A DNA stretch of 64,000 nucleotides from an uncultured Bacteroides sp. Lineage in GTDB: Bacteria > Bacillota > Clostridia > Christensenellales > CAG-917. Shown in pieces: positions 44,417-57,387 of the stretch. The notes under the pieces are model-generated. The model was not told the DNA's origin, did not search any database, and saw only the letters and a list, made by a program, of their open reading frames with translations. The stretch covers positions 24,232-88,231 of the forward strand of contig CAZXUW010000005.1 of NCBI GenBank assembly GCA_964644355.1, read 5' to 3'. The position numbers were made by a program, and so were the translations under genes. Each line of letters begins with the position of its first letter. Position 1 is the first letter of the stretch.

Positions 44417-45175
44417 TTATTCATCAAGGTACAAAGTGTCTATGTCACTCGAATTGTTTTCGTCTTTATAGCCATCAAATGTGTCTACAACATCATCAGC
44501 ATCAGTTTGATTTTCGCTTGCAAGTGCGATCTCCAGAAGCTTTTTCTTGTCCTCTTCACTTATATTTTCAAGCTTAACTCCCTCTGCTCTCATCTCCTCT
44601 TTTTCAAGTGCGATTTTGTCTTTGATAAAGGAGCCTATGACAAGTGCTATGACAAGACACATGGGGATCACAATGAGCACAACATAGCCGTACCACTGCG
44701 ACAAAAAGCCTCTCAATCCGCCTATAAACAAAGACTTGCGGACATACTTTGCTTTAATGTTGTCAGGATTCAACTGCCAGTTGTCGGCAGAAGGACTATT
44801 GTCACCTTGCGTTCTGAAATATGCAATTGAACCGTCATCATCAAGCACGATTTCAATTATGCGGTGAGTTTCGTTGTAATTGCCGTTCGGTGCCAAAAAC
44901 GTGATAATATCACCAACTTTCAGCTCGTTTACGTCATCCACTTCCTTGCAGATGATCACCTCGCCGGGCTCAATGGTGCCACTCATGCTATCCGTCAACA
45001 CGTCATAAAGCCTATAACCAAAAATTGAAGTTTCTTGTCCGCCACTTCTTTGAATAAGCATAACGGCAACAACCACCACCAAAAACACGAATAGCAAAGC
45101 AACCACCATCGTGGATACAATGTTGTAAATTTTCTTTGTCTTTGATATAGGTTTTTGATCTTCTATTTCTGCCAT
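44417..45175 (-). CDS. sipW: SipW-type (S26B) signal peptidase I, paralogue 1, with extended acidic C-terminal tail
   Basis: N-terminal TM segment, Ser box VLTDSMSGTIEPG, His box ETHRIIEI, and RTQGDNSPSAD. The order and spacing match B. subtilis SipW (LSGSMEP...THRIV...TKGDN). There is a C-terminal TM segment plus a ~65-aa D/E-rich tail. The start is ATG 45175, with no clear RBS. Confidence 0.8.
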   Translation of the reverse strand: MAEIEDQKPISKTKKIYNIVSTMVVALLFVFLVVVVAVMLIQRSGGQETSIFGYRLYDVLTDSMSGTIEPGEVIICKEVDDVNELKVGDIITFLAPNGNYNETHRIIEIVLDDDGSIAYFRTQGDNSPSADNWQLNPDNIKAKYVRKSLFIGGLRGFLSQWYGYVVLIVIPMCLVIALVIGSFIKDKIALEKEEMRAEGVKLENISEEDKKKLLEIALASENQTDADDVVDTFDGYKDENNSSDIDTLYLDE

Positions 45176-45183
45176 ATATGTTT

Positions 45184-45204
45184 GTACGCACACGAGGTGC
45201 GTAC
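45184..45204. other. 8-bp-stem hairpin between the McrC-like and sipW-1 genes
   Basis: GTACGCAC-acgag-GTGCGTAC. The T7 run is on the plus strand only (45205..45211). Confidence 0.6.
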
Positions 45205-45216
45205 TTTTTTTAGAGT

Positions 45217-48024
45217 TTAGTCTTGATCGTCGGAGTCTTTTTCCTCTGCCTTGGTTGTCATGCTGAACACGTCACCAAACGGATCTGTTATGCCACTGTC
45301 CGAGCTGAAGTGTATTCCGCCAACACCGACTTTATCCTCGTCCACGGCTTCAAGTTTGCCCTTTCTTCCCGTCGGTTGTGAATACTTCTGATTGAGCGTT
45401 GTGGGGCTCAATGCGTTGGGATCCTTACGTGGTTTTGACGATTTCTTTTTCTTTGGCGGTTGAGGTTCATTTTCAACATTTTGCGCATCAATCACCACTT
45501 TATCGTCATTTTTGGGCTGTTCATCTGCCGTTTTTGTCAATTCATCGACTTTTTCGTCTTTGACTTCAACGTCTTTTGGTTGTTCCTCGTTGGCAACTTC
45601 TCGTGTAGGTTCCTCCTGCTCGTCAGGCTTCACCTGCTCGACAGATTCTTGCTCTTGAGGCTTTGGTTTGCGGTTATACTTGCGTTTGGGTTTATCCTCT
45701 TTTTTCTCATCGAGATTGCCGAGTTTTGCCCCTTCACCCCAAGGTGTTACACTGCCATCACCCTTGAAGCTTATGCCCATACCTTGAGTATCTTCTATGC
45801 GACCGCCAACGTTTATACGCAATTCAGATTTCGCAACTTCTTGCACTTGTTGTTGCTCCTCTTGCGTATCCTCACTTGCAGACGTGGTTGGTTGTTCAAC
45901 AAGCTCTTGTTCAACCACTTTTGGTTTGCGATTGTATTTACGTTTTGGCTTTTCAACCTTGTTTTCATCAAGATTGCCCAGATTTGCACCCTCACCCCAA
46001 GGCGTAACACTGTCATTCTCTTTGATGTGTACGTCACCGACTGCGACCTTGTTTTCATCAACAGGCGTGAGATCAACCTCTTTCTTCGGCTTATTTTCAC
46101 CACTCCAAGGATCGATTTCCTCATCGGATTTTGCAATACGCACTTTGCCTTTCTTGTGCGGTTTTTCCTCATCGGCTTTAGTCTCTTGGACAGGTTGTGC
46201 AACGTCTGGCTGTTGCGTTTCCACTTCGCTCTCAACTTGAGATACCGGCACGAATGTTTCCATGCTCTCAAGTTCTCTATCAAGCTTCTCGTCTTGCACG
46301 GCTTTTTTACGGCGAGCTTCTTCCATTTCCTCAATGGAAGCATTGATCTTGTCTGTATTCTTATCTTCAAGCTCAAGATTTTCGTGCTTGTCAATCTTGA
46401 TCTTTTCAAGTTTCTTGGCTTCTTCTTCCCTGCGCTTATACTCTGCGATCTTTGCCTTTTGGAAGCTGAACGGATCCATGCCGAAATAGGTTGAGTCACT
46501 CTCAACTCCATTCTTTTCAAGCTCCTCTCTCTGCTTGCGGAATGCCTCGGCACGCTTCTTGATGTCCTCTTTGCGTCTGCGGATACGCTCTTGTCTGTCT
46601 CTCTCATCAAGTTCCTCTTGCTTGATGCGACGATATGACGTGAGACAACGATCAATAGCGTCACGAGCTTTGGCAATTTCCTCTTGCTTAAGCTTATCGT
46701 CGTCAGGACGCTTGAACACTTTACGCACCTCAAACAAGTGCTGATCAAACGTCTCAGCATCCGGCTCGAGGTCGACTTCTTCTTGATCTGCCTTTGGAGG
46801 CATCTCCTTGAGTCTCTCAACCTCAACAGGACGCTCCACAACCACTTCGACTTCTATCTCTTGAGGCTTTTCAATCTCCTCGATTTCAGGCTCTTCAGGC
46901 GGAATTTCAGTGTCGGCATCCTCATCCTCTTGAGGTTTGACCTCCTCGATATTCTCCTGTTCGTCCTCATTCTCCTCCGAATCGTCAAGCTTTTGAGCAT
47001 ATTCGTCTCTTTCAAGCTTGTCTTTGTCAAAGTCCATTTCACCAACACGCAGGAAGTCGGCAAATTCCTTATCTTCCATATCGAAGTCGGTTTCGCACTG
47101 ATCGTACAAGCTTTCAAACACCATCGTGTTGAGTGTGAGCATGCTGTTGAGTCTTGCACTGCTCTCGTCGTCGATTGGGAAATCTTCCACCTCGTCGGAC
47201 GTTGAAAAACCTGCCGTCTGTTGATACGTCTCGATAAACTGCCACAAAGTGAGAGCCTTCTTGAAATTTGGCTCCTTCAAAATGACGTTTGTACGCATGA
47301 TAGGCGGACGAACAGGTGCGGAGTTACGCATCGACTTTGCAAATGACGATGACAAGAAGTCTGTGATAATGCGGTCAATTTTTGCAACACGCTCGATCTT
47401 GGTGAGTGTGTCGGGATCAAGACGCATAATCTCATCAAAGCTTAATTGTGCAAAATACTCCGTTCTATAGGTTATTTTCTTGCTTGGAAGATTAAATCTA
47501 GACTCAACGTCAAGCTCCAAGACGTCCTGTGTTGCGGATGCCTTTTTGATCTTGTCATAACGCATTGTGACAAAGTCCTTGAGCTTGAGAAGCAAGGTGT
47601 AAATAAAGCGGTTTTCATAAATCTCAAAGGATTCTTCCTTTGTGATATTGAGAATTTTTGATGGTGTGACGTCACCCGTTTTCTCGTCAACCTTGGAGAT
47701 CATGTTGGTGTGCTGGGCAAGATATTTGACAGACTCTGTCGATATACTTCTTGCAAGCGAAACGTCAACGATATCCTCCTCTTGGACGATGAATTTTCTT
47801 GGGTTACGCACGATTGTATCGAGATTTGGAAGGATACTTTCAATGGTATCGATCCAATCTATGGAGATGTCTTGTACGAGGCGTTTTTTGGCAAGCTTAA
47901 ACTTGGATACGCCTTTATCTACACGTTTTTTGAATTGCTCATAAAAGCCCTCATCCTTGAGGACTGAAACAATCTTGTTCGCATACGATACGTACACTTC
48001 TCTTGTAATCTTATTGTCAGCCAT
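45217..48024 (-). CDS. McrC-N-terminal-domain-like protein lacking a nuclease, with a ~620-aa charged low-complexity repeat tail
   Basis: 935 aa. Residues ~1-315 look globular and include ESFEIYENRFIYTLLLKLKDF (compare E. coli McrC NEDTLANRIIKSTLAILI). No hhhDxK nuclease motif is found. Residues 316-935 are E/K/D/Q-rich with internal repeats. The gene lies immediately downstream of an McrB-like gene. Confidence 0.6.
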   Translation of the reverse strand: MADNKITREVYVSYANKIVSVLKDEGFYEQFKKRVDKGVSKFKLAKKRLVQDISIDWIDTIESILPNLDTIVRNPRKFIVQEEDIVDVSLARSISTESVKYLAQHTNMISKVDEKTGDVTPSKILNITKEESFEIYENRFIYTLLLKLKDFVTMRYDKIKKASATQDVLELDVESRFNLPSKKITYRTEYFAQLSFDEIMRLDPDTLTKIERVAKIDRIITDFLSSSFAKSMRNSAPVRPPIMRTNVILKEPNFKKALTLWQFIETYQQTAGFSTSDEVEDFPIDDESSARLNSMLTLNTMVFESLYDQCETDFDMEDKEFADFLRVGEMDFDKDKLERDEYAQKLDDSEENEDEQENIEEVKPQEDEDADTEIPPEEPEIEEIEKPQEIEVEVVVERPVEVERLKEMPPKADQEEVDLEPDAETFDQHLFEVRKVFKRPDDDKLKQEEIAKARDAIDRCLTSYRRIKQEELDERDRQERIRRRKEDIKKRAEAFRKQREELEKNGVESDSTYFGMDPFSFQKAKIAEYKRREEEAKKLEKIKIDKHENLELEDKNTDKINASIEEMEEARRKKAVQDEKLDRELESMETFVPVSQVESEVETQQPDVAQPVQETKADEEKPHKKGKVRIAKSDEEIDPWSGENKPKKEVDLTPVDENKVAVGDVHIKENDSVTPWGEGANLGNLDENKVEKPKRKYNRKPKVVEQELVEQPTTSASEDTQEEQQQVQEVAKSELRINVGGRIEDTQGMGISFKGDGSVTPWGEGAKLGNLDEKKEDKPKRKYNRKPKPQEQESVEQVKPDEQEEPTREVANEEQPKDVEVKDEKVDELTKTADEQPKNDDKVVIDAQNVENEPQPPKKKKSSKPRKDPNALSPTTLNQKYSQPTGRKGKLEAVDEDKVGVGGIHFSSDSGITDPFGDVFSMTTKAEEKDSDDQD

Positions 48025-48063: not shown

Positions 48064-49572
48064 TTAGAACAACTTCTTAAGTCTGTTGATGTATTCCTTG
48101 CTCTCTTGCATATTTTCCTCGCCGAAAAGCTCGCTCAAATAGAGGATCAAGCCGTCGATTTCGTCACGGATGTAGGACAAGTTCAATGATTCAAACTTAC
48201 GGAAAATCTTGTTGCAGAGCACGTAGTCGAGACCGTCGATTTCCGTACCGCCACAGCCAACGTAGCTCGGAACAAACTCTTTGAGCTGTTTCACGATACG
48301 GTTGCCAAACGCAAGACGGAAGTGTTCGATAACATAGTCGTCAAGTTGGTTAACCTTGTCCAAAACCTCTTGAGAGACCTTGTAGATCTCTTGAGATTCC
48401 TTGAACATAGCCTCAAGATGCTTGTAGCTGATAAAGATATTATCCGCCCACGGAGCTTCAAATGGAACGCCCTTGCTGTTGATGTTGATAGGCATAGCAC
48501 GGTCGTAAACCTTATCTGAAATAGCAAACGTGGAGTCGTCGTTGTTTGCGGTGCCGATAAACCACATATTTTGCGGAAGTCTAAATCTACCCTTGTCGAT
48601 ATGCTTGGGGTCGTTTGCCCAACCGGACGGAACGAGGTCAACAATCCACTCGTCACGAGAAGGCATTTCGAGAATTGACAACATTTCTGCAAAATAGTAC
48701 TCAACACGCGCGATGTTCATTTCGTCGAGGACGGTGAGGTAAATTTGGTCATTCCAAGTTGCCTCGTACATCTTCTTCAAAACTTCCGTTTCATTGAAAC
48801 GCTTTGTAAATTCGTTGAAGTAGCCGAAAAGTTCGGTACGATCACGCCAAGACGGCTGAACGGAAGCGATGGTTGCGGGGTTGTTGAGGAAGATACCCAT
48901 AGCGTGCGGAAGTGACGTCTTACCTGTACCGGAAATTCCCTGCAAAATCATAAGACGAGAGGTTGACATACCCGCGATAAACAGTCTTATAATACGTGGA
49001 TTGTAATACAATCTCATCCTTGAGCAAGCGAAGTTGCGGAAGCGGTCGCAAAGCTCGGGAAGTGTGATTTCGTCATCGAATACAGGCGGAACGTAGTTCT
49101 CGTAAATCTTGTCGATTTCGGTGAGCTTGTAGAAACGAGACTCGCCTGTTGGAGACTGTTCTTGTTTTTTCTCGCCTTCTTCTTCACCCTCGTAGTTGCC
49201 GATATCACTCACACGCATACCCAAAATACGATCCTTTTCAGCGGACATTTTGATGATTTGCTTTTTGAGGTTGGCACACTCCTCAACGAGGTCTTGCGGA
49301 AGGACTTTGGTCTTGCCCAAGCGAGAGAGCTTGCGAAGTCCCAGGATAGCAAGCACGATGATTGCCACGATAACGGCAACGATAAGTACGATAAAGATAA
49401 TGGCAACCGCCCATTCGCCGGCACCAAAATATTCTGTATAGTTGGAAAAAGCATCGGTGTAGCCGTCGTTGTAGAAGATATGCAAAAATCCCCAGAAAAT
49501 ACTGCCGATTCCCTTGTCGTAGAAGGCACCGAGAAATGCTTTTAGAAATTCAAAAACCAAATTTATATTCAT
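48064..49572 (-). CDS. Membrane-anchored McrB-like AAA+ (AAA_5) GTPase
   Basis: Walker A GISGTGKTS. McrB box LTVLDEMNIARVEYYFAEMLSILE (compare McrB DEINRANLSKVFGELMMLIE). FIGTANNDDSTFAISDKVYDRA (compare MNTADRS..RRF). The N-terminal TM segment AVAIIFIVLIVAVIVAIIVLAILGL is followed by RKLSRLGKTK. Confidence 0.75.
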   Translation of the reverse strand: MNINLVFEFLKAFLGAFYDKGIGSIFWGFLHIFYNDGYTDAFSNYTEYFGAGEWAVAIIFIVLIVAVIVAIIVLAILGLRKLSRLGKTKVLPQDLVEECANLKKQIIKMSAEKDRILGMRVSDIGNYEGEEEGEKKQEQSPTGESRFYKLTEIDKIYENYVPPVFDDEITLPELCDRFRNFACSRMRLYYNPRIIRLFIAGMSTSRLMILQGISGTGKTSLPHAMGIFLNNPATIASVQPSWRDRTELFGYFNEFTKRFNETEVLKKMYEATWNDQIYLTVLDEMNIARVEYYFAEMLSILEMPSRDEWIVDLVPSGWANDPKHIDKGRFRLPQNMWFIGTANNDDSTFAISDKVYDRAMPININSKGVPFEAPWADNIFISYKHLEAMFKESQEIYKVSQEVLDKVNQLDDYVIEHFRLAFGNRIVKQLKEFVPSYVGCGGTEIDGLDYVLCNKIFRKFESLNLSYIRDEIDGLILYLSELFGEENMQESKEYINRLKKLF

Positions 49573-49693: not shown

Positions 49694-50623
49694 TCATTCA
49701 GAATCGCTATCGCTTATGACAGCATCGTCATCGACGTCTTGAACATCACTCTCGCTTTGAGCATTCTCATCCGTAGCGACGTTTTGGTCAGCATCAGATT
49801 GAGAGAGCGAGGCAAGATATTCTTGAGCAAGACGGCGTTTTTCCTCATCGGAAAGAGCATCCACCGTCACAACTTGCTCTGATTGCACCTTGCGTTCATT
49901 TTCAAGCTTTGCGATGACAAGCGTGCGGACAAGCACAAATGCATAAATCACAAACAAAAGGATGAGCGGAAGCACGACAACACAGAAGAAGCGTGTACGC
50001 CCCTGCTCTGGATCCTGAATCCAGTTGGTGAAACCGCCAACATTCTTGAGCACATCGCCATCCGTAGCGGTTGTTCCATCTGACGAACCCCAAGTTGCCT
50101 TGATGTTGGAAGCATAAGTATTGCTTTCAACGTTGCCGATGATGTCATTGTTGCGTTCACTTTCCGGCTTTGCAAGCTCCGCTGCCGCCTCTTGCCAAGA
50201 GTGATCCTGATTGTCACCTCGAGTGACGTATGCAATCAATTTGCCGTTTGTATCAAACTTTTTCGCCACGATTCTGTGGGTGTTCAAAACACCTGTACGC
50301 ACCCTGAACGTGACAACCTGCCCGATTTGGAGCTCACCATCGGTTGTGTAGTCGTATGTTTTGCCGACAATCATATCGTCCTTGTCAAAAGTCGGACTCA
50401 TAGAGTCGGATGCGACCACCATATACACGGTATCTCCAAAAGTAGGCAAACGGAACTCCTCATCACTCGTAGAAGCAATGGTGAAAATAGCCACAACGAG
50501 TGCAAACACGACAAGCACGATACAGCAAGCCGTTGCCACCCAATTGAGGATATTCATCACGTTCTTCTGCCTCGGAGTGAGTTCTTTCTTTTCTCTCTTA
50601 TGAGAGCCTTTTGCTGATTCCAT
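49694..50623 (-). CDS. sipW: SipW-type (S26B) signal peptidase I, paralogue 2, with insertion and extended acidic C-terminal tail
   Basis: N-terminal TM segment, Ser box VVASDSMSPTFDKDD, His box NTHRIVAK, and TRGDNQD. There is a ~60-aa insertion before the C-terminal TM segment and a ~85-aa tail. A GGAAGG RBS is present. Confidence 0.8.
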   Translation of the reverse strand: MESAKGSHKREKKELTPRQKNVMNILNWVATACCIVLVVFALVVAIFTIASTSDEEFRLPTFGDTVYMVVASDSMSPTFDKDDMIVGKTYDYTTDGELQIGQVVTFRVRTGVLNTHRIVAKKFDTNGKLIAYVTRGDNQDHSWQEAAAELAKPESERNNDIIGNVESNTYASNIKATWGSSDGTTATDGDVLKNVGGFTNWIQDPEQGRTRFFCVVVLPLILLFVIYAFVLVRTLVIAKLENERKVQSEQVVTVDALSDEEKRRLAQEYLASLSQSDADQNVATDENAQSESDVQDVDDDAVISDSDSE

Positions 50624-50844: not shown

Positions 50845-50937
50845 TAGTAATTTACAAAACGGCAGTTTTTGTCCGTAAACGCAATGTGACATAAGGCATT
50901 TGCAATCACCATGATGCTGTTGGAGCAATGCGTCAAA

Positions 50938-51162
50938 GTGCCGATTGACGACACCACTATAAAATGTCAAAGATTTCACAGCACACTGTGCTTGAGATAT
51001 AAAAAACGAAAAATAACATACAGAAATAAGGTTTTTTTAGAAAGGGGGCTTTATTTCGATAAGGAGAAAAACGATGAAAAAGAAAGGTTTGCTTATCTCA
51101 ACAATCGCAATGGTTGTTGTGCTGATCGCAGCTCTTACTACATCAACTTACGCTTGGTTTAC
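50938..51162 (+). repeat. Left arm of a 225-bp inverted repeat (promoter + 5'UTR + first 29-30 codons of TasA-like gene A)
   Basis: Identical to the reverse complement of 53063..53287 at 224/225 positions. The single mismatch is at 51143 (TCA Ser versus ACA Thr). Confidence 0.95.
50975..51003 (+). promoter_or_regulatory. Promoter of TasA-like gene A with a spacer palindrome
   Basis: TTCACA (50975..50980), 17 nt, TATAAA (50998..51003). The palindrome AGCACA-c-TGTGCT (50980..50992) lies in the spacer. Confidence 0.5.
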
Positions 51163-52138
51163 TGTGTCAACCACTACGAATATTGATGGTTTTACCGTCA
51201 GCGTAGAAGCCGGTAACGTTATGGCAATTGGTTTGAACGCACAAGGTTATACATCATACAGCGATGCTGCATCCCCAGACAATTTTGTTTCAGGAACTGT
51301 AACCTATACACATGGTGGTGATGATGATGGTGTTGCTAATGGATATTGGACAGGCAACCAAGGCCTTGGTGCATCTATTTCGCATGATATTGTTTGGTCA
51401 ACTCAAAGTAAAGCTGTTGGATTCTCAAGTGCAGGAGCACTTTCAGGTGCAACATATGCAAACACAAAGTTTTATAAGAATGATGGCACAGTTGAAAATA
51501 ATAACGGATCATCTTTCGATTTAGCAATTGCTGCAAATGGTTCCACAACATCCATGGAAGCTCCACGCCTTGCTATTGAAAACAAGAAAACTACAGCTGA
51601 TACCGACGAGTCCACTAATGGTGACTATGTTTATATGTTCCTTGGTGCACAACCAACACAAGCTTTGATGGATAATACAAACATTTTGCATGTTGTCATC
51701 CAACCACAAGGCACAGGCACAAGAATTGGTATGGCCGCAGCTATCCATGTTGCATACAGAGTTAATGGTGGTGATTGGGAAGATGTTGATGTCTATGGTG
51801 CTGCAAACAAACATTATAATGACGAAAGAGCCTCGACAGAAGCTAAAATTTATGGTGATATTACTGGTACAGGCAAATCCAATGGTTTAGATGCAAATTC
51901 TTTGTCATATTCTACGACAACATATCAAACCACTATAACGGGTGCAAAGAGTGTTGATATCCCGTTGACACAATACACCGATGCTACATCAAGTGCACCG
52001 TTTGATCAAATTGAATTGATAATTTATGTTGCAGGTGCAGACAGCGATTGCCTTGACTCAGCAAAGAATGGTTCTATCAGAATTGGCATATTCTTCGGAG
52101 CACAAGAAGCAATCACTTCAAATGAAGGGAATAACTAA
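51074..52138 (+). CDS. TasA/camelysin-like secreted protein A with SipW-cognate-type signal peptide
   Basis: Signal peptide MKKKGLLISTIAMVVVLIAALTTSTYAWFT (compare TasA ...GGGTWAAFND and CalY ...GGGTFAYFSD). The C-terminus KNGSIRIGIFFGAQE resembles TasA QGNSIKLQFSFEATQ. An AAGGAG RBS is present and SipW genes are adjacent. Confidence 0.7.
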   Translation: MKKKGLLISTIAMVVVLIAALTTSTYAWFTVSTTTNIDGFTVSVEAGNVMAIGLNAQGYTSYSDAASPDNFVSGTVTYTHGGDDDGVANGYWTGNQGLGASISHDIVWSTQSKAVGFSSAGALSGATYANTKFYKNDGTVENNNGSSFDLAIAANGSTTSMEAPRLAIENKKTTADTDESTNGDYVYMFLGAQPTQALMDNTNILHVVIQPQGTGTRIGMAAAIHVAYRVNGGDWEDVDVYGAANKHYNDERASTEAKIYGDITGTGKSNGLDANSLSYSTTTYQTTITGAKSVDIPLTQYTDATSSAPFDQIELIIYVAGADSDCLDSAKNGSIRIGIFFGAQEAITSNEGNN

Positions 52139-52160: not shown

Positions 52161-52188
52161 AAAACACGGCTCGATTGAGCCGTGTTTT
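52161..52188. terminator. Bidirectional terminator between the convergent TasA-like genes
   Basis: AAAACACGGCTC-gat-tGAGCCGTGTTTT. Confidence 0.65.
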
Positions 52189-52209: not shown

Positions 52210-53151
52210 TTAGGTTGAACTTTCTGCTTTCTTATCTGCAATAAAGTTAATTGTTATAACTGACTTAACGTTTGCTGCATTACTATTGCAGTCTTGATCT
52301 TTACCATTGATAAAGAGTTTAATATGGATTTGATGAATTTCACCTTGTGGGACAATATCAGTTCCGTTGCCAGTAATTTCTATTTCATATGTCTTTGCGC
52401 CAGGATTCCAAGTTATATCCGGTATTTCAATTGGATTATAATTGGTTGTACCATTTATTGTTGTCGTTGCACTATGACCCTCGTACACATCAATTATGTC
52501 TGACCAACTGCCATTATCAATTTTGTAGATGAAAGAAATAGCTGCATTCATGCCCAATACTGTTGAAGATGAATCAGGGTTAACGCCTATAACGCATTTT
52601 ACTTTTGTAACATTTTGTTTGGCAGGTGCAACGCCAAATGCAACGTCCAGATAGTCGCCAGTATTGTCTTCACCTTTGATACCATTTGCAACTGCATTTT
52701 CAATTTCGGTTCTTGTAACATCTTGACCGCTACCAGAAGCTTTTACCCAATTCCCTTCAGGTTGCAAAGTTTCATCAATAGTACCCGAAGAATCATTACC
52801 TGCGACATAGGCTGTACCTGTATAAACAGCTTTCTTCATGCCAGCAAGACTCAAACCGGTATCAACCTCAAAACCAAGACCTTCTGTACCATCCCACGCA
52901 TTTTTAGTGATATCATATGAAAGACCAGAACCGCTAACAAATAAATTTTGTCCGATAGAATCGCCTGTATTTATTTTATTTGTTTTGGAAACACCAATTG
53001 TCAAATCAGAGTCAGAAGTAACTTCAAAATTTATTGGCCTAACTTCAGTTTTCGAAGCTGCTGTAAACCAAGCGTAAGTTGTTGTAGTAAGAGCTGCGAT
53101 CAGCACAACAACCATTGCGATTGTTGAGATAAGCAAACCTTTCTTTTTCAT
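52210..53151 (-). CDS. TasA/camelysin-like secreted protein B with SipW-cognate-type signal peptide
   Basis: Signal peptide MKKKGLLISTIAMVVVLIAALTTTTYAWFT, identical to A except for one residue. The mature part is highly diverged from A. C-terminal motif IHIKLFINGKDQDCNSNAANVKSVITINFIA. Confidence 0.7.
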   Translation of the reverse strand: MKKKGLLISTIAMVVVLIAALTTTTYAWFTAASKTEVRPINFEVTSDSDLTIGVSKTNKINTGDSIGQNLFVSGSGLSYDITKNAWDGTEGLGFEVDTGLSLAGMKKAVYTGTAYVAGNDSSGTIDETLQPEGNWVKASGSGQDVTRTEIENAVANGIKGEDNTGDYLDVAFGVAPAKQNVTKVKCVIGVNPDSSSTVLGMNAAISFIYKIDNGSWSDIIDVYEGHSATTTINGTTNYNPIEIPDITWNPGAKTYEIEITGNGTDIVPQGEIHQIHIKLFINGKDQDCNSNAANVKSVITINFIADKKAESST

Positions 53152-53287
53152 CGTTTTTCTCCTTATCGAAATAAAGCCCCCTTTCTAAAAAAACCTTATT
53201 TCTGTATGTTATTTTTCGTTTTTTATATCTCAAGCACAGTGTGCTGTGAAATCTTTGACATTTTATAGTGGTGTCGTCAATCGGCAC
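53063..53287 (-). repeat. Right arm of the 225-bp inverted repeat
   Basis: Reverse complement of 50938..51162 (224/225). It contains the mirrored promoter (53222..53250) and palindrome (53233..53245). Confidence 0.95.
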
Positions 53288-53676
53288 ATTTGCGTAAAGA
53301 TTTGCGATGCGAATCTTTTATGCAATGATATCCCTTTGGGATGATATCCAACTGCTTTGGATTGTGGCATATCTGACAATGCAGACAAGTGCACTTATAC
53401 ATTATGTATATTAATTATAGCCTTTGCGTATGCCAATGTCAACACTAAATTTGTATTTTTGTGCTTTTTCAGCGATTTAATACAACAATTTGTTTTATTT
53501 TTTAATACTGTTGTCGTTTTATCCAACAGATGTATTGCAATTTTCTTGTTGCTCATCAAGCATTTGTTTTGGCTGTTTTGCAAGATTTTATGAGCAAAAT
53601 GCGGATTTCACCACTCTTAAAAGGATATCATCGGCAAAGCCGATATCATTTGCAAGCAATGCTTGCAAGTTTTTTG

Positions 53677-54759
53677 TCAGCTTGCGTAGAAATTCAAGCC
53701 CATCTTGCAGTAGCCACCGATGGCGGAGTCGATGCAATCAAAATCACTGCCCTCAATCCATATGCTGAGATAGCAGTACATGATGTCTCCCTTGGCTAGA
53801 TCAAGACTGTTTTGAAAGACAAATTCGTCAGATGCGAATGGTGTGGTTGCTTTGTAGCCGTGCAATTGTGCGGTCATCTTGGTGTCTGCATCCGCATTGA
53901 GCATGGCATCATAGTCTTTGAGATAGTAATATTTGCCATTTGGATGCACGTTAAGACCGACTTCTCTGTCGTACGCAACGCATTCGATATAGCCGTCCTC
54001 TGCCGTTCTGCCAACGTTGTAGGCATTGTCGGCAAGACGCTCACTGTCACTCAAAGAGGCATATACGTTGATGTTGGTGGCACTCTCCCCATCTTCAAGC
54101 CCGATAGGATTCTTGAGGCTGTATCCCCACATAACTCGCACGGAGTCTTGCAAATCGTGATCGTCAAACTCAAGCGTCATTTCATAATCGACGTGAGCTT
54201 CCTCGTTGCCGTTGTTGCGGAGCATGAAGGTGAATGCTATATATTGCTCGCCATTCATCTCGCCAAGCTCAAACTCGTCGGCATTGAGCAAGGAATATAC
54301 CTCGCTTTCGCTGAGCGGAGTTTCCGTGCCATAGCGTGAATCATAGCTGATGTTCCAGATGTCATCGGGACCGTCGGCGTTGAGGTATGGCGTCCAATAT
54401 TCATTGTCCATGGACAAAGAAATCGACTTGTCCTTGTTGCGATTGTTGACCGTGATACGCACGTTGTTTTCTTCCATAAGCAACAGCATGATGTACACGA
54501 TTGACGTAACCACAAGAGCAAACACAAGCATGATGAGCATCGCCCTCTTGACCTTGGCACGAAGCTCCTCTCTCTTGACCTTTTTGGACGCAACGATACT
54601 GTCCTCCCATTCCTTTTTCAAACGGGCGGTCTCTTTTGCGGAATTGCGAGCACTCTTTTTGCTCGATTTCGCCTTTTTGGCAGATGAGGACTCCTCAAGC
54701 TCATCGTAAGCTTGCTCGTCCATCTCATCCTGCATTCTTTCAATATCGTTTTCGCTCAT
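53677..54759 (-). CDS. Single-pass (type II) membrane protein with an ectodomain ending in the TasA-like C-terminal motif
   Basis: A charged cytoplasmic N-terminus of 72 aa, then the TM segment AMLIMLVFALVVTSIVYIMLLLM, then a ~265-aa ectodomain. The C-terminus CYLSIWIEGSDFDCIDSAIGGYCKMGLNFYAS aligns with A (LIIYVAGADSDCLDSAKNGSIRIGIFFGA) and B. Confidence 0.65.
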   Translation of the reverse strand: MSENDIERMQDEMDEQAYDELEESSSAKKAKSSKKSARNSAKETARLKKEWEDSIVASKKVKREELRAKVKRAMLIMLVFALVVTSIVYIMLLLMEENNVRITVNNRNKDKSISLSMDNEYWTPYLNADGPDDIWNISYDSRYGTETPLSESEVYSLLNADEFELGEMNGEQYIAFTFMLRNNGNEEAHVDYEMTLEFDDHDLQDSVRVMWGYSLKNPIGLEDGESATNINVYASLSDSERLADNAYNVGRTAEDGYIECVAYDREVGLNVHPNGKYYYLKDYDAMLNADADTKMTAQLHGYKATTPFASDEFVFQNSLDLAKGDIMYCYLSIWIEGSDFDCIDSAIGGYCKMGLNFYAS

Positions 54760-54846: not shown

Positions 54847-56655
54847 TTAGAACTTATGGTATGTTCCGTCACCTGCAAAGTAGCCGTATGGCACCCATTT
54901 GCCGATCGTGTCGTCAAAATAGCCGTTGTCAACAATCTCGCCGTTGAGGTCTGTGTAGGTGTAGTCTATCCATCTGCCTTCCTCGTCAAAGTAGCCGTCA
55001 TAGACGTTGCCGTCTTTGTCAACCCACTGTGCCTTGTCGTTGTAAGAGCCTTCCTTGGTGACGTCAAACTGCTCGTATTCAACCCAGTTGCCTTCCACAT
55101 CGAAATAGCCGTTGAACACGTTGCCATCCTCGTCAACCCACTGACCTTTGTCATTGTATTTGCCGATAAGCTCCGGCTCACCGTCGTTCTTGTTCTCGAT
55201 ACGCATCGTGATGCCAAATCCGCTCACGCCGGCATCCATGCCAAGCCCACCGAACATGCTGTCACTCTTGTATTCGTTGAAAAGCTTTTCTTCCTTGTCG
55301 AAATCAGCCTTGATTTTCTTGGGTTTCTTTGGCTTTTTGACTTCCGGTTGAGCAGGTCTTATAGGTGCGGATACGCTGTTTTCGTCTTGATCTACGACAG
55401 TCTCTTTCTTCTTGTCAGACGGCTTTTCCTCATCTAATGCTTGCTCGTCCTTGGACTTCTCTTTTTCAGCCTTATCTGCTTTGTCCTCAAGCGGACGATC
55501 TACGCCAAGCTCGCTCTTTTTCTGCGATGCAAAGCTCAATGCCAAAGCGCTCTGCACGTCGCCCTCATAACGCATGCGAGACATCTCGTCAAGAAGCTTG
55601 TTGTCTCTCTCATCTGCCTCGGGTGAGTCTTGCTCGATGAGCTTTGCCTGTGCTTGAACTCTCTCCTCCGCCGCCTTGCGTGCATTCTGCTTCTGCTGTT
55701 CAAGACGCACTTGATATGGCGATTTTGCAAGCTCCGGACGTGGCGATGTGGGCATAACCCTCTCTGCATCATTCTCTTTTTCTTTCTCGATGGCGGAATT
55801 TCTCAATGCCTCAAGCTCGTTTGCAACCGCTTTTTCTTTGGCATCTAGCACCTTTTGGAGCTTCTTGAGATACTGATCTTTCTTTTCTCCGACAGGATCT
55901 TTCAAAAGCAAAAATTCATTGGTAACCCATCTTGAAAGTTTGCTTACCGCCCTACCTGTCAAGAGCTTTATGCCTTCTTTCTTGAAACGCGCGTATTGAC
56001 TTGGTGAGTCAACCCCTTCCATAATCAAGCCGATTTTGTTGCTCTTGCAAAAACTTACAAGCATTGCTAGCACCTTTTTCTTGTTTTGAGCGGTGTCAAA
56101 ATAGCTTGCTTCACATCTCAAATAGTCAAAATTAAACTCCGCAAGCACGTCTAGTGCGTTGTAGTCCTCACCAAACGCCGATGCACAAATTTTGTAGCCG
56201 AGCTTACGCAAACGGTTGTATCTCTTTTTGCCTTCCTCATCAAGCCCCACAAGATTGGACACAAAGAAGGATATGACGAGATTGCTCTTTTTGTAGCCCA
56301 AATCCTTGAGTGTTGAGGTGAGCACGTCAAAATCTTTGTCATTATCCAAAAATCTTGTCGTAATGGGCAGACAATACGTGAGGTTGTCAGGGATAAGGAA
56401 ATTCTCTCGCATAACGAGGTCATAATTGACAAGCTCCTCAAGGGCAATGACGTTAAGCTCGTTGATACGCACGGAATTTTCTGCAATATAAAAATAATTG
56501 CATACGCTCATTCTCCCCAAATACCTGTCGTTGAGAACTTGAAACGCATCAACAAAAACTACCTTCTTGCTCTTGCCGGAAGCTTCAACAACTCCCCTGA
56601 AGAAAAAGTCAATAGGTTTGTACAGCGTTCTTTTTGCGTATGCCGTAGTATTCAT
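54847..56655 (-). CDS. Degenerate EAL-domain protein with a charged linker and C-terminal aromatic/Gly repeats
   Basis: Residues 1-245 follow the EAL-domain layout: YKPIDFF, VDAFQVLNDR, YFYIAENSVRINELNVIALEEL, LRKLGYKICASAFGEDYNALDVLAEFNFDYLRCE and LIMEGVDSPSQYARFKKEGIKLLTG. Most catalytic residues are replaced. Residues 250-490 are K/E-rich. Residues 495-602 contain repeats of YNDK(G/A)QWVD.DGNV..GYFD.EG.W..Y. An AGGTGGGA RBS precedes ATG 56655. Confidence 0.65.
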   Translation of the reverse strand: MNTTAYAKRTLYKPIDFFFRGVVEASGKSKKVVFVDAFQVLNDRYLGRMSVCNYFYIAENSVRINELNVIALEELVNYDLVMRENFLIPDNLTYCLPITTRFLDNDKDFDVLTSTLKDLGYKKSNLVISFFVSNLVGLDEEGKKRYNRLRKLGYKICASAFGEDYNALDVLAEFNFDYLRCEASYFDTAQNKKKVLAMLVSFCKSNKIGLIMEGVDSPSQYARFKKEGIKLLTGRAVSKLSRWVTNEFLLLKDPVGEKKDQYLKKLQKVLDAKEKAVANELEALRNSAIEKEKENDAERVMPTSPRPELAKSPYQVRLEQQKQNARKAAEERVQAQAKLIEQDSPEADERDNKLLDEMSRMRYEGDVQSALALSFASQKKSELGVDRPLEDKADKAEKEKSKDEQALDEEKPSDKKKETVVDQDENSVSAPIRPAQPEVKKPKKPKKIKADFDKEEKLFNEYKSDSMFGGLGMDAGVSGFGITMRIENKNDGEPELIGKYNDKGQWVDEDGNVFNGYFDVEGNWVEYEQFDVTKEGSYNDKAQWVDKDGNVYDGYFDEEGRWIDYTYTDLNGEIVDNGYFDDTIGKWVPYGYFAGDGTYHKF

Positions 56656-56933
56656 TTCCCACCTTTCCACACGCACGCTAGCGGAGCGTACGAGCGCATA
56701 ATACTCTAATATACTTTTTCAATTATACCATTAGACAACAAAATTGGCAATAGGTTTTGATATTTTTTTACATTTTGTACAATTGCTTGCAATTAAATCC
56801 AAATTGAAACGGGCAAATATAGTCAAATATTTTGCGATTTGCCACACGGCAAACGAAACGTGCAAAACACACCATAACTGCAACTTGCATATCATAACAA
56901 TTCAAAAAGCCCTCGCAATGAGAGCTTTTTGTC

Positions 56934-57021
56934 TTGGTGCCGAAAATCGGGGTCGAACCGATACGATGTTTCCATCGAGGGATTTTAAGTCCCTTGCGTC
57001 TGCCTATTCCGCCATTCCGGC
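56934..57021 (-). tRNA. tRNA-Leu (anticodon UAA)
   Basis: Reverse complement GCCGGAATGGCGGAATAGGCAGACGCAAGGGACTTAAAATCCCTCGATGGAAACATCGTATCGGTTCGACCCCGATTTTCGGCACCA. It has a long variable arm and the anticodon loop CTTAAAA. Confidence 0.9.
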
Positions 57022-57097
57022 ATGTTAAGTATGTGTTAAGTTGTTTGCTTGAGCGTGGTGGTCTTTGTGCAGACGCCGGGATGAACACCGTTCATTT

Positions 57098-57119
57098 GTC
57101 TGCCTATTCCGCCATTCCG
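57098..57119 (-). other. 22-nt duplicate of the tRNA-Leu 5' acceptor/D-arm segment (tRNA fragment)
   Basis: GTCTGCCTATTCCGCCATTCCG occurs at 56998..57019 (inside tRNA-Leu) and again at 57098..57119. The second copy has no anticodon arm, T-arm or 3' acceptor partner. Confidence 0.6.
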
Positions 57120-57226
57120 TCATTGTGCGACTGCTTTTCGTATTTTAGCACAAGCGTTTTTATTTGTAAAGAACTAGCATAAAACTAGCAATAAAAAAAT
57201 CCCAAACAAAGCGTTTGAGATTCTTT

Positions 57227-57300
57227 TGGAGGCATCACCCAGACTTGAACTGGGGGTGAGGATTTTGCAGACCCTTGCCTTACCACTTGGCTATGATGCC
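57227..57300 (-). tRNA. tRNA-Cys (anticodon GCA)
   Basis: Reverse complement GGCATCATAGCCAAGTGGTAAGGCAAGGGTCTGCAAAATCCTCACCCCCAGTTCAAGTCTGGGTGATGCCTCCA. The anticodon loop is CTGCAAA. Confidence 0.9.
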
Positions 57301-57312
57301 GGATTTTGCTTG

Positions 57313-57387
57313 TGGAGCGGGAGACGGGATTCGGACCCGCGACTTTCACCTTGGCAAGGTGACACTCTACCACTGAGTCACTCCCGC
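57313..57387 (-). tRNA. tRNA-Gly (anticodon GCC)
   Basis: Reverse complement GCGGGAGTGACTCAGTGGTAGAGTGTCACCTTGCCAAGGTGAAAGTCGCGGGTCCGAATCCCGTCTCCCGCTCCA. The anticodon loop is TTGCCAA. Confidence 0.9.

Follow-up and report, generated by a model that had tools for sequence, protein, structure and literature searches.

A predicted membrane-anchored McrB-family NTPase encoded in a conserved cluster with SipW-type signal peptidases and putative fibre subunits

What would a McrB-family AAA+ NTPase do if a membrane anchor stood in place of its DNA-reading domain? This question is raised by a gene in a 64,000-nt stretch of DNA, hereafter the window, from an uncultured Bacteroides sp. (GTDB lineage Christensenellales, CAG-917; contig CAZXUW010000005.1, positions 24,232 to 88,231). 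An earlier note on this DNA had framed the gene product as an odd restriction-type protein. We found that the McrB homology behind this framing is sound but that the emphasis on restriction is not, as no nuclease was detected and the gene lies in a cluster of envelope genes that recurs in ~80 species. We lean towards a role in the biogenesis or control of surface fibres rather than in restriction. The gene and its main parts are as follows.

48064..49572, minus strand: gene of the McrB-like AAA+ NTPase (ATG start, 502 aa; from the window's list of open reading frames, ORFs)
49336..49410, minus strand: transmembrane (TM) helix of the McrB-like protein, residues 55-79, followed by the basic flank RKLSRLGKTK (from hydropathy and charge asymmetry)
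48358..48990, minus strand: AAA+ core of the McrB-like protein, residues ~195-405 (from the 6hz4 alignment and invariant columns)

From its N- to its C-terminus the protein comprises an acidic amphipathic N-segment (residues 1-54), the TM helix, a juxtamembrane helix, an acidic spacer, an RF..L...D motif and an NxD-type McrB GTPase domain. A phmmer comparison with the PDB aligned residues 195-405 with E. coli McrB (6hz4, E 2.6e-7). Here the Walker A motif GISGTGKT (212-219) lies opposite GPPGVGKT, LTVLDEMNIARVEYYFAEMLSILE opposite IFIIDEINRANLSKVFGEVMMLME and FIGTANNDDSTFAISDKVYDRA opposite IIGLMNTADRSLAVVDYALRRRF; the three McrB boxes that the earlier note had read in order are thus all present and align with E. 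coli McrB as it stated. The Walker B motif LDEMN (282-286) falls within VLDEMNIAR (281-289), opposite McrB IIDEINRAN, and the signature motif GTANNDD (N343-N-D345-D) is followed by YDR358. The note had also proposed a comparison with McrB structures, and in a search of 177,635 PDB sequences nothing but McrB chains matched significantly, whether the query was the single sequence (2.6e-7) or a 15-sequence profile (6.8e-7). The NCBIfam McrB model matched at E 1.5e-7, far below its equivalog cut-off, which indicates a homologue of McrB and not an orthologue. Pfam AAA_5 reached 17.8 bits against a cut-off of 22 for the window copy and passes in relatives (P0258, 29.3 bits), and the PADLOC model PDC-M26A matched at E 3.6e-36. 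As judged from its sequence, the protein is a McrB-family AAA+ NTPase with all NTPase motifs intact.

These features are conserved. When family members spanning 33-84% identity were aligned, M1, G212, G215, G217, K218, T219, D283, N286, R289, N343, D345 and R358 were invariant, and the Walker B residue E284 was nearly so. Position 346, after the invariant N343-x-D345, is D, E or Q; the family carries the NxD variant of the signature motif, as against the NxxD of E. coli McrB. The N-terminal pattern, the TM and the juxtamembrane helix are kept down to 33% identity, and an invariant R146-F147..L150...D154 motif precedes the AAA+ core. Homologues are numerous: all 8000 of the 8000 candidates scored fell at E <=0.001, with query coverage of 98-100% for most of the best 120 of these and of 82-95% for ten, and a search of 1.84 billion cluster representatives returned 8204 related clusters, of which 762 reach E <=1e-30.

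The TM segment, AVAIIFIVLIVAVIVAIIVLAILGL (residues 55-79), consists of nearly nothing but I, V, L, A and F, and its Kyte-Doolittle mean of 3.8 over 19 residues is far over TM thresholds. Hydropathy does not exceed 1.02 for any 19-residue window that starts in residues 1-30, and residues 1-54 are amphipathic and aromatic, with 6 acidic against 2 basic residues by hand count. Among 125 full-length one-TM homologues the mean net charge is -1.4 for the N-segment and +0.96 for the flank after the TM, the C-flank being the more positive in 81%. Together, hydropathy and charge asymmetry support an N-out/C-in topology, which would place the AAA+ domain in the cytoplasm. Residues 1-140 are made up of the amphipathic segment, the TM helix, a helix and the acidic spacer, and no DNA-binding family match was found there. 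Upstream of the ATG, no Shine-Dalgarno sequence is obvious.

Several claims of the earlier note bear on this region. The 25-residue TM helix and its RKLSRLGKTK flank were correctly placed, and the proposal that a membrane anchor replaces the DNA reader agrees with what we found: a TM with a positive-inside flank, no DNA-reading domain, and a family-wide conservation that speaks for an architecture and not a truncation. In the predicted membrane-tethered cytoplasmic AAA+ ring, the anchor and the cytoplasmic position of the AAA+ domain are backed by the TM and the charge asymmetry; the account was nevertheless incomplete, and the architecture was already in the literature, as described below. 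What had been called a ~100-aa linker is not a plain one: within it lie a helical juxtamembrane segment that is conserved (~88-125), an acidic stretch that varies, and the invariant R146-F147...L150...D154.

Membrane anchoring also recurs beyond the closest relatives. A hydropathy scan of the best 150 representative clusters separated four N-terminal architectures: one TM and ~500 aa, found in all of the closest clusters including the window protein; two TMs and ~460-520 aa; four or more TMs and ~560-840 aa; and no TM, with a 400-500-aa soluble N-terminal region in ~700-870 aa. No known Pfam domain was found in the N-regions of these groups, and all of them matched PDC-M26A, through the GTPase domain. 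Given the one-, two- and four-TM groups, membrane anchoring is common in the NxD GTPase branch and not unique to the window protein. A tabulation of homologue N-domains, as the earlier note had suggested, yields these four architectures, with the closest homologues all one-TM.

Directly downstream of the McrB-like gene lies that of a predicted McrC-like partner.

45217..48024, minus strand: McrC-like partner, 935 aa (start 39 nt after the McrB-like stop; DUF2357)

The partner matches Pfam DUF2357 (McrC N-terminal; PF09823) at 34.2 bits against a cut-off of 23.3, and PF09823 was the only domain in nearly all of the 120 partner homologues listed. Its N-domain of ~310 aa contains ~55 invariant positions (alignment at 42-91% identity), with the conserved stretches IVRNPRKFIVxEEDIVDISLAR, KEESFEVYENRFIYTLL and APVRPPITRTNVILK. 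This domain is followed by lineage-variable tails that are acidic, helical, E/K/R-rich and of low complexity, as are the remaining ~600 aa of the window partner. We detected no nuclease in the partner by Pfam, by PDB sequence search (E <=10) or by Foldseek of an N-domain model. This AlphaFold2 model is of moderate quality (pLDDT 66.9, pTM 0.46), and Foldseek against the PDB returned nothing at E <0.05, the best match being topoisomerase III (E 0.058, TM-score 0.10). The most conserved partner loops (78-91 and 122-131) are the least confident part of the monomer model (pLDDT <50). We infer that these may be segments that fold only in complex, like the McrC 'finger' that becomes ordered inside the McrB ring.

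The window partner is long, 935 aa against 430-590 aa in most homologues, its C-terminal ~560 aa corresponding to 45217-46900. Its tail bears three copies of a (V/I)T(P/D)(W/P)(G/F) motif, DSVTPWGEGANLGNLDENKVEKPKRKYNRKPK, DGSVTPWGEGAKLGNLDEKKEDKPKRKYNRKPK and, at the end, the degenerate DSGITDPFGDVF, two of which are followed by KPKRKYNRKPK. A second, family-wide motif, hydrophobic-R-x-hydrophobic…N-x-A-I-D-R-hydrophobic-L (…DAIDRCL… in the window), lies between the acidic spacer and the charged helix. The extension may be a single charged helix; the partner of locus L004 has a weak Rod_CreS match, and a crude scan saw no canonical heptads in the partner tail.

The surroundings of the gene pair turned our attention to the cell envelope. 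On the minus strand of the window the order is EAL, a 360-aa anchored protein, two secreted paralogues (one of them on the plus strand), SipW, McrB-like, McrC-like and a second SipW, and the genes around the pair are these.

54847..56676, minus strand: EAL-domain protein, 609 aa (Pfam EAL, E 1.4e-20)
53677..54759, minus strand: membrane-anchored subunit paralogue, 360 aa (charged cytoplasmic N-tail of ~72 aa, TM, ectodomain ending WIEGSDFDC)
52210..53151, minus strand: secreted beta-sandwich protein, putative fibre subunit 2 (signal peptide end TTTTYAWFT)
51074..52138, plus strand: secreted paralogue, putative fibre subunit 1 (convergent with subunit 2)
49694..50623, minus strand: upstream SipW-type (Ser/His) signal peptidase I, 309 aa (C-terminal TM, acidic cytoplasmic tail …SDEEKRRLAQEYLASL…)
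44417..45193, minus strand: downstream SipW-type signal peptidase I, 258 aa (start 23 nt after the McrC-like stop)

A scan of one genome per species found relatives of the McrB-like protein in at least 597 species. We collected 88 loci (80 of them genome loci; 49-99% identity) and searched their six-frame ORFs with the window proteins. Across the 80 species-level genomes the conserved order is [EAL]-anchored beta-sandwich-AWF secreted-SipW-McrB-like-McrC-like-[second SipW]. In 86 of the 88 loci the partner gene lies next to the McrB-like gene, and 78 of the 80 genome loci contain a SipW-like gene; AWF-type secreted proteins occur in 52 of the latter, the anchored paralogue in 63 of all 88 loci and the EAL gene within the cluster in 26 of them. 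Strand and order are shared with the NTPase pair with few exceptions, which include the reverse-strand copy of convergent pilin-like pairs. These loci come from Christensenellales, Oscillospirales (including Ruminococcus flavefaciens), Lachnospiraceae (including Eubacterium ruminantium) and metagenome-assembled genomes labelled Erysipelotrichaceae and Acholeplasmatales. The closest relatives among the matches listed are Christensenella sp. UBA767 (96%) and Firmicutes bacterium CAG:238 (99%, partial), and cultured carriers are Ruminococcus flavefaciens MC2020, Ruminococcus sp. FC2018 and Eubacterium ruminantium FB3002. By inspection, the identity of the McrB-like proteins seems to follow taxonomy in rough terms. 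Among 2.9 million viral contigs there were no more than 12 distant relatives (26-35% identity), and the clade looks neither mobile nor viral. That the SipW/beta-sandwich cluster is conserved in ~80 species points away from DNA restriction.

In the window the cluster is flanked by housekeeping genes (topA, dprA, a comM-like gene and tRNA genes). The comM-like, dprA and topA flanks are common to only the three closest relatives among the 88 loci; it is the fibre genes, and not a chromosomal position, that travel with the pair. For the same reason we dropped a functional link to these competence-type genes. Among the genes examined in and around the cluster (~39-58 kb) there was no integrase or transposase. 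Three tRNA genes (Leu-taa, Cys-gca, Gly-gcc) lie at 56935-57387 on the minus strand, immediately upstream of the EAL gene, and a tRNA-Thr gene at 1154-1229, also minus, near the window start; most window genes are encoded on the minus strand, and the GC skew stays negative from end to end. This looks like an ordinary chromosomal context and not an island.

An McrBC survey by Bell, Sahakyan, Makarova, Wolf and Koonin (eLife 2024;13:RP94800; PMC11090510) defined an NxD branch of McrB GTPases, for which it gives the pattern NxD(D/E). In one paragraph it names a class CoCoPALM, with an N-domain termed FtsB-like, deferring it to 'a separate, forthcoming publication', and sets it next to the CoCoNuTs, predicted defence systems with long soluble coiled-coil N-domains that are always linked to HEPN or other nucleases (PMC11090510). 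Within the full-text literature the name CoCoPALM occurred only in Bell et al. and its preprint, and nothing further was found on McrB or an AAA+/GTPase together with SipW, TasA or a pilus. The window module very probably belongs to this class. It shares the NxD McrB-like GTPase, the N-terminal TM with a helical segment, the adjacent DUF2357 homologue with a long helical charged extension, and the signal-peptidase-family genes; every CoCoPALM feature tested was found, apart from FtsB homology and coiled-coil character, which were not confirmed, with the class read from motifs and neighbours and not from tree placement. FtsB-type similarity was at noise level in Pfam (DivIC at E 0.012 in 1 of 15 members, FtsL at 0.04 in 2 of 15), and the juxtamembrane helix has L, I or V at roughly heptad spacing in the consensus, in a segment that a crude heptad scan did not flag. 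The window gene is a new member of a named kind, and its membrane-anchored architecture is not itself new. The paragraph that Bell et al. devote to the class does not describe a TapA-like anchor paralogue, an AWF signal class, a SipW tail motif, a degenerate EAL protein or an inverted-repeat pilin cassette.

Better-known relatives differ more. With E. coli McrBC (6hz4, 6ut6, 7vsr) the window pair shares the AAA+ Walker A and B motifs, a sensor-like Asn, the following Arg and an activator gene immediately downstream. Unlike McrBC, it has a TM anchor and no N-terminal DNA-binding domain, NxD in place of NxxD, a partner with neither a detectable PD-(D/E)xK nuclease nor detectable similarity to E. 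coli McrC itself, and a context of envelope biogenesis instead of restriction. The CoCoNuTs and PDC-M26 have in common with it the NxD GTPase branch and McrC homologues that often have no active nuclease; from the CoCoNuTs it is set apart by the TM anchor and by a cluster in which no nuclease was found.

Both signal peptidases of the window are of the SipW type. The downstream copy scores 81.8 bits with TIGR02228 (cut-off 51.85), E 2.6e-31 with the SipW model, and matches Pfam Peptidase_S26; the upstream copy is just under the TIGR02228 cut-off at 49.9 bits and scores E 2.9e-12 with the SipW model. The boxes SDSM, THRI and GDN can be read from the upstream translation, and S..SM, HR and GDN boxes are present in both window copies and in 90 of 133 homologues in the loci. 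The SipW copies of the cluster end in a C-terminal TM and an acidic cytoplasmic tail of 40-120 aa (49694-49900 and 44417-44700 in the window; also loci L009-L088). B. subtilis SipW is not known to have a C-terminal TM and a long acidic tail of this kind. Upstream SipW tails share a motif, …EEIK[KR][KR]A[IV]EEYLA… (consensus EEIKRRAIEEYLA); the expression E[EQ]Y[LIV] is found in the tails of 49 of the 75 upstream copies, as against 7 of 51 for the downstream copies and 1% for other ORFs, and does not count the window versions, AQEYLASL and LEIALASE. A conserved cytoplasmic peptide on an extracytoplasmic enzyme, encoded beside a cytoplasmic NTPase, gives a lead as to how the two halves of the system meet. 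The motif hints that the upstream SipW tail is a candidate docking peptide for the NTPase pair, and this is the most concrete lead on a physical link.

The secreted proteins are putative SipW-type substrates, with a predicted beta-sandwich fold and a candidate donor strand. Behind a basic hydrophobic signal they carry the signal end [ST]-x-[YF]-A-W-F-[ST], conserved in 51 distinct homologues, which resembles the GGT[FW]A[YA]F of TasA/CalY. TIGR04088, the SipW-cognate signal, scores 16.1 bits on subunit 2, just under its cut-off of 19. An AlphaFold2 model of subunit 2 from a deep alignment (pLDDT 86.6, pTM 0.83) shows a helix at 4-22, a disordered stretch at 23-38 and then a beta-sandwich. The 360-aa protein shares with the secreted subunits a C-terminal W-x-E-G-x-D-x-D-C motif; in its family, at every locus examined, the AWF motif is absent and the TM looks uncleaved. 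By analogy it may be a TapA-like fibre anchor or initiator. At locus L001 (Oscillospiraceae) the cluster extends further: it encodes four additional proteins with related signal ends (SWF, AWF, TWV and AWI), another SipW and an LRR_5 protein of 2023 aa with the signal end FAWY. Such a gene content is what would be predicted for an adhesive fibre that has minor subunits and one large adhesin.

These genes recall tapA-sipW-tasA of Bacillus subtilis and sipW-bsaA-bsaB-bsaC of Clostridium perfringens, which likewise combine a dedicated SipW-type peptidase, paralogous secreted beta-rich proteins with a T-[FY]-A-x-F-type signal end and a membrane-anchored accessory paralogue. In contrast to the window cluster, those operons include no NTPase; the window subunits are larger and not detectably M73/TasA, and the window SipW tails are long.

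The two subunit genes of the window lie tail to tail between the arms of an inverted repeat.

50935..51162: inverted repeat, left arm, 228 nt (~139 nt upstream of subunit 1 plus its first 30 codons)
53063..53290: inverted repeat, right arm (5' end of subunit 2)

The arms are 99% complementary and bracket a 1.9-kb segment with the bodies of the two convergent pilin-like genes. They take in the signal peptide, up to YAWFT, so that the first 30 codons of subunit 1 are those of subunit 2, bar a mismatch at the arm end. Near-perfect arms are also found at L010 (4915-5290/8365-8740, 376 nt, 99%) and L011 (~4497-4666/6749-6919, ~172 nt, 99%), whose McrB-like proteins are 84% and 70% identical to that of the window, respectively. 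This suggests ongoing recombination at the pilin-like genes, either as an invertible cassette that swaps the subunit behind a strong promoter or as gene conversion. Pilin inversion in Moraxella provides a precedent for an invertible pilin cassette. No recombinase was seen among the genes examined in and around the cluster. A look through contigs for the cassette in reversed orientation found subunit 1 only on a 1.4-kb contig and no exact record of subunit 2, and so speaks neither for nor against inversion.

The window offers some indications of expression and control. A promoter-like site at 53442-53414 on the minus strand (12 of 12 consensus matches) lies upstream of subunit 2, just outside the right arm, and another at 50844-50816 (11 of 12) upstream of the upstream SipW; a strong bidirectional terminator-like hairpin sits at 52161-52188 between the convergent subunit genes. 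From these sites we conclude that SipW, McrB-like, McrC-like and SipW likely form a transcription unit. The domain of the EAL protein can be aligned with active phosphodiesterases, but key catalytic residues are degenerate relative to TBD1265 (2r6o), with Asn changed to Pro, ITE to FFV and DDFG to SAFG. The domain is followed by a long charged region and C-terminal repeats of the GxYNDKxQWVDxDGNV type (GKYNDKGQWVDEDGNVFNGYFDVEGNW), and weak NCBIfam matches include the cyclic di-GMP (c-di-GMP) receptor LapD. The protein is thus probably a c-di-GMP receptor rather than a phosphodiesterase, and a role in sensing c-di-GMP is plausible.

Relatives of the pair were also found in other settings. Locus L005 (4635-8267, Logan SRR26557943 contig) encodes a 42%-identical one-TM relative with the Walker A motif GSVGSGKT, accompanied by a McrC_N-like partner of only 324 aa and a protein of 380 aa and unknown type. 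The trio comes directly after genes for phage tail, holin and endolysin, where a prophage ends. It could be a phage-borne offshoot with a different role, perhaps in exclusion. In a two-TM sister clade (L006, 4668-12923; L104, 4907-10889) there are two tandem NTPase/partner pairs, flanked by giant surface proteins: LRR_5, a Glyco_hydro_3_C plus Fn3-like protein, and AgI_II_C2. The NTPase pair may be linked to surface-protein biogenesis broadly and not to SipW alone.

How might such a pair serve a fibre? We think it rather likely that a membrane-tethered NTPase ring, activated by a McrC-like plug, serves the assembly or control of SipW-processed surface fibres and not restriction. Six McrB-like subunits would form a ring under the membrane, as in McrBC, held there by six TM helices, and loops of the McrC-like N-domain (~73-91 and 122-131) would plug the ring and trigger hydrolysis. 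Instead of working on DNA, the ring would work on or organise the fibre-assembly site, binding the cytoplasmic tail of the adjacent SipW, that of the anchor subunit, or both. Nucleotide hydrolysis could then be coupled to the presentation of signal-anchored precursors to SipW and hence to fibre initiation or growth, with the degenerate EAL protein supplying c-di-GMP-dependent control. In function, the McrB-like ring would then correspond to the hexameric NTPase that type IV pili use. Type IV pili and archaella (PilB/FlaI) follow a similar logic, with a hexameric NTPase on the cytoplasmic side of the membrane, a signal peptidase of their own and anchored subunit precursors, in an analogy only: the families are unrelated, a RecA-like ATPase contrasting with AAA+ McrB and an aspartyl prepilin peptidase with a Ser/His type I peptidase, and the signals there are of class III. 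That the ring is a true mechanical motor is possible but doubtful. Equally tentative is the fullest version of the proposal, in which a restriction motor was exapted into an engine that uses NTP to assemble or gate SipW-processed fibres of the donor-strand type in Gram-positive gut anaerobes, docked on the SipW tail, controlled by the EAL protein and supplied with alternative subunits by inversion of the 1.9-kb cassette.

A number of results weigh against a fibre role, or against parts of it. The case for such a function of the McrB-like family is one of guilt by association. In hhalign, the partner family profile aligned with E. coli K-12 McrC (used with its N-domain complete and without its last ~29 codons) at a probability of 0.2, and Foldseek of the N-domain model against the PDB had likewise given nothing; the McrC assignment therefore comes from Pfam DUF2357 and gene adjacency. 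For the secreted proteins, none of 69 subunit family members has a Pfam Peptidase_M73 (TasA/camelysin) match, the family profile has no PDB sequence match at E <=10, and Foldseek on subunit 2 picked up two TasA-like archaeal pilins, AbpA (7ueg; probability 0.66, TM-score 0.29) and CanA (9hdi), only marginally, with TasA itself outside the top 50. We therefore refrain from naming them TasA homologues. No SipW was found in the 5.7 kb upstream of the L005 relative, and no SipW or AWF-type gene was detectable near the two-TM sister clade (L006, L104), so the GTPase pair can exist outside a SipW context. Further, the whole GTPase family scores well against PDC-M26A, a candidate defence model. Lastly, the Bacillus tapA-sipW-tasA and C. 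perfringens sipW-bsaABC fibres need no dedicated NTPase (PMC11580942, PMC9245690), and a motor is hence not an obvious requirement.

This last point also speaks for the best-surviving alternative, a regulatory or scaffolding NTPase switch that does no mechanical work: the ring and its charged partner would position the fibre site, for example at poles or septum, or gate SipW by GTP or c-di-GMP. The TM and juxtamembrane helix resemble divisome anchors of the FtsB/FtsL/DivIC type, in keeping with the FtsB-like N-domain of Bell et al., but the matches are weak and the similarity, as noted, is at noise level. The long, variable, highly charged partner tail is spacer- or scaffold-like, and the cluster encodes a degenerate EAL protein. 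However, none of the catalytic residues needed for hydrolysis varies, and the McrC-type activator is strictly kept, which argues for turnover rather than a simple nucleotide-bound switch. We consider a pure switch unlikely.

The second alternative is defence. A membrane-localised McrBC-type module, akin to type IV restriction or a CoCoNuT, would attack or keep out invading nucleic acid at the envelope, or set off abortive infection, with the fibre genes mere neighbours or the fibre a phage receptor whose engagement is sensed. Homology to McrB favours this, as does the PDC-M26A match, shared by all branches of the family, although PDC-M26 is itself only a candidate system. Bell et al. place the clade beside the CoCoNuTs and so beside predicted defence systems (PMC11090510), and the L005 relative stands at a prophage end by holin and endolysin genes, a frequent site of accessory defence genes. 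Yet neither the partner nor the cluster holds a nuclease or other effector domain that we could find, and there is no DNA- or RNA-binding domain. The gene order with SipW and fibre genes is fixed in ~80 species of several orders, unlike that of a mobile defence island, and the housekeeping flanks, the want of an integrase or transposase among the genes examined and the near absence of the clade from viral contigs point the same way. To us, defence is an improbable account of the window pair.

A third possibility, a decayed or truncated McrB that has lost its DNA-binding domain and whose hydrophobic N-terminus is fortuitous, might draw on the sub-threshold AAA_5 score of the window copy and the want of an obvious Shine-Dalgarno sequence, but is ruled out for practical purposes by full-length homologues, by an N-terminal pattern, TM, juxtamembrane helix and catalytic residues conserved to 33% identity, and by the recurrence of the architecture in the at least 597 species genomes.

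If the fibre reading is true, an AAA+ motor known only from DNA restriction would have been repurposed for building or controlling cell-surface fibres. Assembly of Gram-positive fibres is currently viewed as sortase-driven or, for TasA-type fibres, as spontaneous, and the pair would represent a new, energy-dependent route. It would operate in at least 597 species from the Clostridia and related groups, of which many abound in gut or rumen (Christensenellales, Ruminococcus, Acutalibacteraceae, Lachnospiraceae). It would also offer a rationale for the many nuclease-less McrC homologues and would urge caution in annotating every McrB/DUF2357 pair as defence. The cultured carriers make the question of fibre versus defence directly testable, and this analysis adds handles on it: the tail motif of SipW, the putative anchor subunit, the EAL protein with its degenerate catalytic residues, and the subunit cassette between inverted repeats.

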